The notes under the pieces: model-generated | Database searches by the model: none | Seen by the model: only the letters and a program-made list of their open reading frames with translations | What the model was told of the DNA's origin: nothing | Shown here: positions 17,087 through 17,441 of the stretch, one piece after another | How positions within the stretch are numbered: position 1 is the first letter of the stretch | Layout: every line of letters starts with the position of its first letter | Made by a program: the position numbers and the translations under genes | Assembly: GCA_037200745.1 (NCBI GenBank) | Contig: JBBCHK010000014.1 | Span: 23,735 to 87,734, forward strand | Source of the DNA: Alphaproteobacteria bacterium | GTDB taxonomy: Bacteria; Pseudomonadota; Alphaproteobacteria; Rickettsiales; UBA3002 | Length of the DNA stretch: 64,000 nt | Direction: 5' to 3'

Positions 17087-17441
17087 TGTCATTCCCGCGA
17101 AAGCGGGAATCCAGAGCGGCGATGAAACAATACTGGACCTACATATTGGCTAGCAAGCGCAACGGCACTTTGTATATTGGCGTCACCGGTGATTTGATAA
17201 AGCGAAGCTTTCAGCATCGGACAGCGGAAGTAAAAAGCTTTACAGAAAAATATGGCGTAAAATTGCTGGTCTATTATGAAACCCATGAATCGATCGAAGC
17301 CGCGATCGTCAGGGAAAAGCAGATGAAGAAATGGAATCGTAAGTGGAAGTTGGAACTGATCGAAAAATTCAATCCTGAATGGAGAGACCCTGTTCGGGGA
17401 AATCACTCAGTAGCTGGATTCCCGCTTTCGCGGGAATGACA
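17087..17441. mobile_element. GIY-YIG cassette 1 bounded by perfect 28-bp inverted palindromic arms
   Basis: TGTCATTCCCGCGAAAGCGGGAATCCAG (17087-17114) and its exact reverse complement (17414-17441) enclose an AT-rich nuclease gene. Confidence 0.85.
17122..17413 (+). CDS. Small standalone GIY-YIG nuclease (one extra C near 17390; repaired end DLFGEITQ-TAG)
   Basis: YWTYILASKRNGTLYIGVT.DL..R...H...FTEKY....LVYYE......AI.REK..K.W.R.WK..LIE..NPEW.D. Confidence 0.93.

Follow-up and report, generated by a model that had tools for sequence, protein, structure and literature searches.

What is a small GIY-YIG nuclease gene doing between two perfect copies of a dispersed palindromic repeat, and does its product serve, or even spread, that repeat? 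The question arises from an earlier note on a stretch of 64,000 nucleotides of alphaproteobacterial DNA (here called the window), which proposed that the nuclease is the cognate nickase or mobiliser of the repeat and that copies of the repeat without the gene are its passengers. We found, as that note had described, an AT-rich GIY-YIG gene enclosed by inverted arms, with its ATG (17122-17124) 7 nt beyond the left arm. The arms form a perfect inverted repeat of 28 nt (100% complementary, with 299 nt in between; Table 1), and on each side the arm reads as a (T)GTC-ATTCCCGC-GAAA-GCGGGAAT-CCAG hairpin. The GC content of the cassette interior is 0.435 to 0.44, compared to 0.60 to 0.73 in the adjoining flanks and 0.62 to 0.665 in the contigs. 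The encoded protein matched PF01541 (GIY-YIG) with an E value of 1.6e-12 over residues 3 to 77 of the 89 tested; no other Pfam domain was found in it, and no NCBIfam model matched it. An alignment of 20 homologs showed that Y7, Y18, R28, H32, E65, and N84 are conserved, with Y7, Y18, and E65 invariant or almost so.

Table 1. Positions of the cassettes, hairpin elements, and neighbouring genes. Coordinates are those of the window, except for the last four lines, which give contig and position in the same genome (G000).
Feature	Coordinates	Strand	Remarks
Zinc-ribbon-like small ORF between pdhC and cassette	16550..17079 (end about)	+	Frame-broken by assembly indels
Left arm, NTS/SRM hairpin	17087..17114	+	TGTC tag, 8-bp stem ATTCCCGC, GAAA loop, CCAG tail
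ssn, single-domain GIY-YIG nuclease gene	17122..17413	+	PF01541; 96 aa after indel correction
Right arm, identical hairpin inverted	17414..17441	-	28-nt inverted repeat; fits SRM motif
lpdA	17455..18850 (end approximate)	+	Frame-broken by assembly indels
Gene-less hairpin dimer, CCAG-tail type	21776..21856	.	
Third ssn cassette	26960..27300	+	Arms 26960-26987 (+) and 27273-27300 (-); frame-broken ssn from 26993
Gene-less hairpin dimer, CCAG-tail type	36839..36921	.	
Single degenerate arm	47808..47831	-	
Gene-less hairpin dimer, CTCT-tail type	51478..51556	.	
Gene-less hairpin dimer, CTCT/CTCC-tail type	52512..52591	.	
Gene-less hairpin dimer, CCAG-tail type	54453..54540	.	
Dimer with ~32-nt module	G000 C6:27518-27627		
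Dimer with ~32-nt module	G000 C9:41703-41822		
Dimer with ~32-nt module	G000 C15:152404-152515		
Dimer with ~32-nt module	G000 C15:229024-229134		

As assembled, the ssn frame departs from the NPxWxDL motif after D89, enters the right arm, and continues to position 17439. An independent 353-nt contig (run X1, depth 2.8) spans 17088 to 17441, and its sole difference from the assembly is one base absent at 17388. When this base is removed, a TAG at 17411 to 17413 falls directly against the right arm and the product is 96 aa long; thus, the earlier note was correct in placing a repaired TAG at the arm, while its product of about 97 aa was not exact. The frame break comes from an assembly indel of 1 nt, a correction taken from a single low-depth contig of a run that is possibly the source sample. 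We also compared contigs from a public run to the assembly over 16600 to 18200 and found other differences, each seen in a single contig at a depth of 2 to 3: a further X1 contig differs by 6 indels within 16826 to 17038, in the zinc-ribbon-like ORF, and another contig has an extra C behind 17503, inside lpdA. Both of these genes appear frame-broken because the assembly has many single-base indels, and many other genes in it, like lpdA, are frame-broken as well. The genome (1.85 Mb in 15 contigs) is 69% complete by marker genes, a score that is probably depressed by these indels. In the ssn genes of L002, L011, and L017 and at 27255 to 27296 of the window, there is no stop codon ahead of the right arm, and a TGA inside ...AATGAC ends the frame. 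Since these frames end inside the arm, the last 7 residues (e.g., GFPPSRE) are encoded by the hairpin.

The cassette had been placed within a pdhC-lpdA operon. This holds on the lpdA side, where the gene adjoins the cassette (start at 17455), but pdhC, which ends at 16537, is separated from it by a small ORF with two CxxC pairs and a low-complexity tail. By tblastn, this zinc-ribbon-like ORF is present at 19 of 21 sister-species loci; it was undetected by that search at L038 and at L022, the G032 locus, where a hairpin element occupies its position.

Two published descriptions account for the parts of this cassette. The portions of Chenal et al. (2025, Nat Commun 16:2388, PMC11893778) on which we draw describe Ssn nucleases as GIY-YIG proteins of ~94 aa (cd10448; homology cut-off for the family, E < 1e-10), give the Neisseria NTS as CGTCATTCCCGCGMAVGCGGGAATCYRG, and define a degenerate SRM motif whose loops have 0 to 5 variable positions. 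They report SRM hairpins in the flanking regions of 71% of ssnA homologs, and on both sides for 42%. We found that in the window arm 27 of the 28 positions agree with the NTS consensus (a T replaces the first C) and that both arms flanking the gene fit the degenerate motif. The protein, with its single domain and 96 aa, falls within the ~94 to 100 aa of Ssn proteins, and its Y7, Y18, and E65, the GIY tyrosine, the YIG tyrosine, and the metal-binding glutamate, correspond to Y6, Y17, and E64, residues mutated in N. meningitidis SsnA (PMC11893778, same portions). The protein is also 61% identical over 83 aa to the product of an N. gonorrhoeae locus (E of 1e-28 by tblastn and 9e-36 in a pairwise comparison) that has 6 SRM matches within 1449 nt; this locus is unannotated, and we took it as the ssnA ortholog from its NTS context alone. 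The gonococcal match came from two chromosome-sized records within a plasmid collection. One of them (L131, aligned region 601-867) is filed as a plasmid though it is 2.17 Mb long, and upstream of the aligned region its frame reaches a stop without passing a start codon, so the homolog may be 5'-truncated in that strain.

The second description concerns the repeat. In the part of Di Nocera et al. (2013, PMC3733652) cited here, CGTC REPs have a C/TGTC tag, an 8- to 9-bp stem starting with AT, a 4- to 5-nt loop, and a CCA tail, and they mostly form head-to-head dimers. The window repeat has the same tag, an AT-initial 8-bp stem, a 4-nt loop, and the CCA tail, and its 161 matches in the genome include 68 head-to-head pairs. 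It differs in having a GIY-YIG gene as its associated enzyme; that part of the 2013 paper assigns CGTC REPs no dedicated transposase or other enzyme. The statement in the earlier note that no enzyme had been assigned to these repeats is therefore true of the 2013 paper and has been overtaken by PMC11893778, as far as the portions used here go. PMC11893778 was the only publication that we found to tie a GIY-YIG protein to REP-like palindromic repeats, and since it already links Ssn to the hairpin, the idea of an enzyme for this repeat is not new. We conclude with high confidence that the cassette belongs to the published Ssn family as an NTS-ssn-NTS unit, with inverted recognition hairpins (for which CGTC-1 REP, NTS, and SRM are equivalent names) flanking ssn. 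It is a rediscovery of a known arrangement, not a new kind of element.

Other collections added little to this assignment. A PDB sequence search returned only weak UPF0213 matches (E of 0.03 to 0.09) and no solved Ssn structure, and the cassette protein had no match in a phage collection. There were 33 matching records in the plasmid collection, mostly large rhizobial or sphingomonad replicons along with chromosome-sized records, which gives no support to a small plasmid as a vector for ssn. We also considered the Coxiella QMITE, which has no bearing on the cassette.

We then looked at the repeat itself across the window and the genome. The window contains 13 core arm matches, compared to 0 in 100 shuffled sequences. 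Every place at which the earlier note had listed arms without the gene was recovered, as pairs near 21778, 36841, 51479, 52514, and 54456 and as a single arm at 47809. The 161 genome-wide matches mentioned above come from a fuzzy search with a 23-nt arm. In 66 of the 68 pairs, the arms are 28 to 68 nt apart and make a gene-less element of about 80 to 100 bp; the other two pairs of this main stem type, at 303 and 322 nt, are long, and both contain ssn. The gene-less hairpins sort into classes that correspond to the arms of the ssn copies: the ATTCCCGC stem carries a CCAG tail in 81 cases and a CTCT tail in 21, and there are small numbers of CCAGC-stem variants. The published degenerate SRM motif had 159 matches in the genome and 29 in a shuffled genome. 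A generic finder of GTC hairpins returned 522 matches in the real genome and 218 in the shuffled one, and because of this high background we kept to the published motif and to named classes of stem and tail. The 57 dimers that we examined lie in intergenic DNA with AT-rich flanks and have ends that read YGTC...GACR. In 56 of the 57, the ends lack a direct repeat of at least 2 nt, which bears out for the genome as a whole the earlier remark that the cassette has no clear target duplication.

To ask whether the dimers are internal-deletion derivatives of cassettes, we compared dimer spacers with cassette ends. In the CTCT type, the spacers of 6 of 11 dimers resemble ~10 nt that follow the right hairpin in the cassette on contig C5. 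The CCAG type shows a similarity that is short and GC-rich. Overall, the spacer similarity is weak and, for the CCAG type, unconvincing.

A tblastn search with the cassette protein identified three ssn loci in this genome: the one at 17122 of the window, a second at C5:124983-125246, and a third at 26993 to 27270 of the window. The C5 gene is intact, its product is 52% identical to the window protein, and it lies in the second long pair, whose arms have a CTCT tail replacing CCAG. The stems of the third copy carry compensating changes (ATCCCAGC/GCTGGGAT on the left; ATGCCA(C)G on the right, with ATGCCA.../...TGGCAT), and both of its arms fit the degenerate SRM motif. Thus, all three ssn copies are enclosed by variants of the arm.

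The association between gene and arms extends beyond this genome. We found ssn in 16 of 18 sister genomes searched, with 1 to ~9 strong copies each. For the best locus per genome (n = 20, this genome included; 22 genomes had a match, and the weak ones in G001 and G007 were removed), 5 genes are enclosed by inverted arms, 3 are bracketed by an upstream dimer and a downstream inverted arm, and 4 lie beside a dimer, with the remainder showing other arrangements or no hairpin by the finder used; stems vary between ssn paralogs across these genomes. A wider scan of one genome per species gave at least 598 confirmed stretches homologous to ssn. Among the best 80 of these, which come from many phyla and are not a random sample because they were picked by one peptide pattern and best score, a GTC hairpin lies within 130 nt at 73, on both sides at 51, and 7 have none. 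At 44 of the 80, a plus-strand hairpin precedes the gene and a minus-strand hairpin follows it, so that it is enclosed. Hairpins at these loci number 154 in 20.6 kb close to the gene and 73 in 73.4 kb at 130 to 600 nt, a 7.5-fold difference in density; the earlier note had proposed a test for such an enrichment of inverted GTC hairpins beside homologs. These figures agree with the flanking frequencies in the cited portions of PMC11893778.

That note had also proposed to correlate repeat number with presence of the gene across genomes. Hairpins of this stem class number 0 to 137 per genome and ssn copies 0 to about 9, and the hairpin count rises with ssn copies among 19 genomes of the genus (Spearman rho of 0.59), a correlation that is not an independent test, and whose nominal p-value is too favourable, because the genomes are kin. 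Two genomes contain hairpins of the class (39 in G001 and 28 in G012) and no strong ssn match, so either the repeats can remain where the gene is absent or the gene is missing from the assembly.

Enclosure of 3 of 3 ssn copies here, hairpins at 73 of the best 80 of at least 598 loci, and the biochemistry of homologs in the cited portions of PMC11893778 together support this GIY-YIG protein as the probable cognate enzyme of the CGTC-tagged hairpin, as had been proposed from the window. Those portions report that four purified Ssn homologs bind the hairpin in single-stranded DNA (ssDNA) only and cut a few nucleotides upstream of it. By analogy, the window protein would bind its GTC-tagged hairpin only in ssDNA and would cut a few nucleotides to the 5' side of the tag. 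With inverted arms, one cut is predicted on each strand, immediately beyond either end of the cassette, and the same is predicted for every gene-less dimer. Such cutting may serve the host by restricting incoming ssDNA, as in Neisseria, or may spread the repeats.

To ask whether cassettes are stable at their positions, we compared orthologous sites in sister species. At the junction between the zinc-ribbon-like ORF and lpdA (site 1), 9 of 21 sister-species loci are empty, with 0 to 15 nt between the genes; the earlier note had proposed to look for empty sites at this locus. Gene-less dimers with four different stems occupy 4 of the 21 (one of them, L022, recognised by eye only), a single palindromic hairpin occupies 1, and an ssn cassette with a 65% identical protein occupies 1 (G009); 5 have other spacers of 66 to 344 nt with no detected hairpin, and a contig end truncates 1. 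In the G009 cassette, the arms (L033; G009:C168 at about 1026-1100 and 1410-1480) combine the TGTC tag, the CCAG tail, and a stem of 8 bp with a self-folding loop of ~45 nt, and with such a loop they would escape the published degenerate SRM motif. At the site of the C5 cassette (site 2), the 600 nt that precede the downstream gene contained neither an ssn nor an SRM match in 18 of 20 relatives; of the other two, G004 has a cassette of the same B type, with a protein 74% identical and likewise CTCT tails, and G016 retains a C-terminal ssn remnant at this junction. At the third cassette (site 3, 26960-27300), 14 of the 21 loci with both flanks are tight (0 to 36 nt), 1 (L005, in G011) has an ssn cassette whose arms have a CTTA tail, and the rest comprise 1 dimer, 1 single hairpin, 1 remnant recognised by eye, and 3 loci with other sequence. 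In most sister species the three cassette sites are empty, and a few species have other dimers or cassettes there. Together, the comparisons show that dimers and cassettes turn over and that the arm variant travels with the protein lineage. Gain and loss at orthologous sites are compatible with mobility and do not by themselves tie it to the nuclease.

These site comparisons make the proposed mobiliser role of the protein somewhat more plausible, and we treat it as a hypothesis to be weighed against two others. One possibility, which we regard as credible while stopping short of calling it probable, is that the cassette is an autonomous mobile element that moves as a unit: the nuclease would spread the MITE-like dimers, with cuts outside the arms starting copying or excision without a target site duplication (TSD) and host repair completing it. 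Three sites that are variously empty, dimer, or cassette in sister species and the lack of a TSD in nearly all dimers are as this predicts, but the species are only ~70 to 76% identical in DNA, so old insertions plus losses could give the same pattern. A 44% GC cassette in a 65% GC genome and homologs with 59 to 73% identity across phyla (among the matches listed), compared to 52% between two paralogs here, also point to mobility, as does the covariation of hairpin count with ssn copies in the 19 related genomes. There is no evident Y1-type enzyme to do the job instead: PF01797 (Y1_Tnp, RAYT type) was not found in this genome, in an assembly that is 69% complete, with a control search positive in 6 of 14 reference genomes. 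The earlier statement that no transposase is present thus stands for the Y1_Tnp family, to which the search was confined. On the other hand, we know of no strand transfer by a GIY-YIG nuclease and of no joining activity for Ssn, and the weak similarity between dimer spacers and cassette ends does not favour an autonomous element. Contigs from the public run showed no excision or new-insertion junction; joints that skip ~300 nt between arms looked at first like excised sites, and the other letters found between their arms mark them as other dimers of the metagenome. The sole function shown for a homolog, in the cited portions of PMC11893778, is restriction of ssDNA.

That function underlies the next explanation, a domesticated host system in which the nuclease and its scattered sites trim incoming or exposed ssDNA, the flanking hairpins are extra sites or autoregulatory, and the repeats spread by other means. 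The portions of PMC11893778 cited here report that N. meningitidis SsnA lowers transformation by NTS-bearing DNA and that its knockout raises such transformation 5-fold; the position of the dimers in AT-rich intergenic DNA and the retention of ssn in 16 of the 18 sister genomes searched would fit a host role. A copy number from 0 to about 9 at unconserved positions is unlike a housekeeping gene, however, and neither three divergent paralogs with their own arm variants in one 1.85-Mb genome nor tight enclosure at 44 of the best 80 of at least 598 loci is what a host system would lead one to expect. We consider this explanation possible, and we lean against it. Homing, by which a selfish ssn would insert into the spacer of existing dimers with arms older than the gene, is improbable: the gene does fill the spacer nearly exactly (leaving 7 nt at the left end and 0 nt at the right end) and does lie beside a complete dimer, not inside one, in L004, L006, L010, and L018, but no free-standing ssn without arm remnants was traced to a donor, and the B-type protein has CTCT tails in both G000 and G004, an agreement of arm variant with protein lineage that is more easily explained by joint travel of gene and arms.

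Returning to mobility, the fullest form of that reading, which we put forward tentatively and as less than probable, is that the cassette is a living mobile element that moves without a TSD and belongs to a class yet to be demonstrated. The nuclease would spread itself and the dimers by replication-time cuts outside the arms, each paralog would act with its own arm variant, and some operon junctions would be hit repeatedly.

The cassette and its dimers differ from several familiar systems. The lack of a TSD in 56 of 57 dimers sets them apart from classical insertion sequences and MITEs, which are marked by such a duplication and a DDE-type transposase. REPIN-RAYT systems, reportedly described by Nunvar in 2010 and by Bertels and Rainey in 2011, share inverted hairpin dimers, one small enzyme gene flanked by repeats, recognition of ssDNA hairpins, and the absence of a TSD. 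They differ in that their enzyme is an HUH/Y1 tyrosine transposase and their tag is GTAG, whereas here the enclosed gene encodes a GIY-YIG protein for which no strand-transfer chemistry is known to us and the tag is CGTC. GIY-YIG homing endonucleases of the I-TevI type have the same catalytic core, and a selfish-element context is possible for both; in contrast to them, our protein has no DNA-binding domain and no intron or intein, and its characterised relatives act on ssDNA.

Within the Ssn/NTS-SRM system of PMC11893778, the cited portions of which also describe a single-domain GIY-YIG protein (~94 to 96 aa), the NTS-type hairpin, the NTS-ssn-NTS layout, many gene-less copies, and a wide range of phyla, the present case differs in several respects. 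The host genome is GC-rich and 1.85 Mb in size, that one genome has three paralogs whose arm variants are distinct, the repeats are nearly all head-to-head dimers of 80 to 100 bp with structured spacers, and gain and loss are documented within a genus. The last of these was not found in the cited portions, which liken NTS-ssnA-NTS to an insertion sequence and to RAYT/REP as a hypothesis; the supplement of that article may cover the genus or mobility. Whether CGTC repeats have a dedicated GIY-YIG enzyme was a question in 2013 that was answered with biochemistry in 2025, and the window adds an example. With its small genomes, 0 to ~9 ssn copies, up to ~137 hairpins, three pairs of paralog and arm variant, and three variable sites, this genus is a convenient one in which to study how such repeats multiply. 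If the nuclease does drive their turnover, this would define a new transposition-like mechanism.

During this analysis, we also found two unusual forms of repeat in the same genome. A second dispersed repeat of ~88 nt is present at G000 C5:125916-126012 and in at least 11 other places (e.g., C6:67497, C15:210314, C9:143510, and C12:32497). It is GTC-tagged and palindromic (GTCATTGCGAG...GAAGCAATCCAG...CTGGATTGCTTC...CTCGCAATGAC), with copies that are 85 to 93% identical, and resembles a dimer of the SRM type whose stems are short and whose loops are structured; we identified no cognate ssn for it in the genome. In four further dimers (Table 1), one arm is interrupted between the stem and the CCAG tail by a common module of ~32 nt (GCCGGAGCGAAGCGGAGACAGGCG.AGCCAAT), which makes them a nested or composite variant of the dimer.
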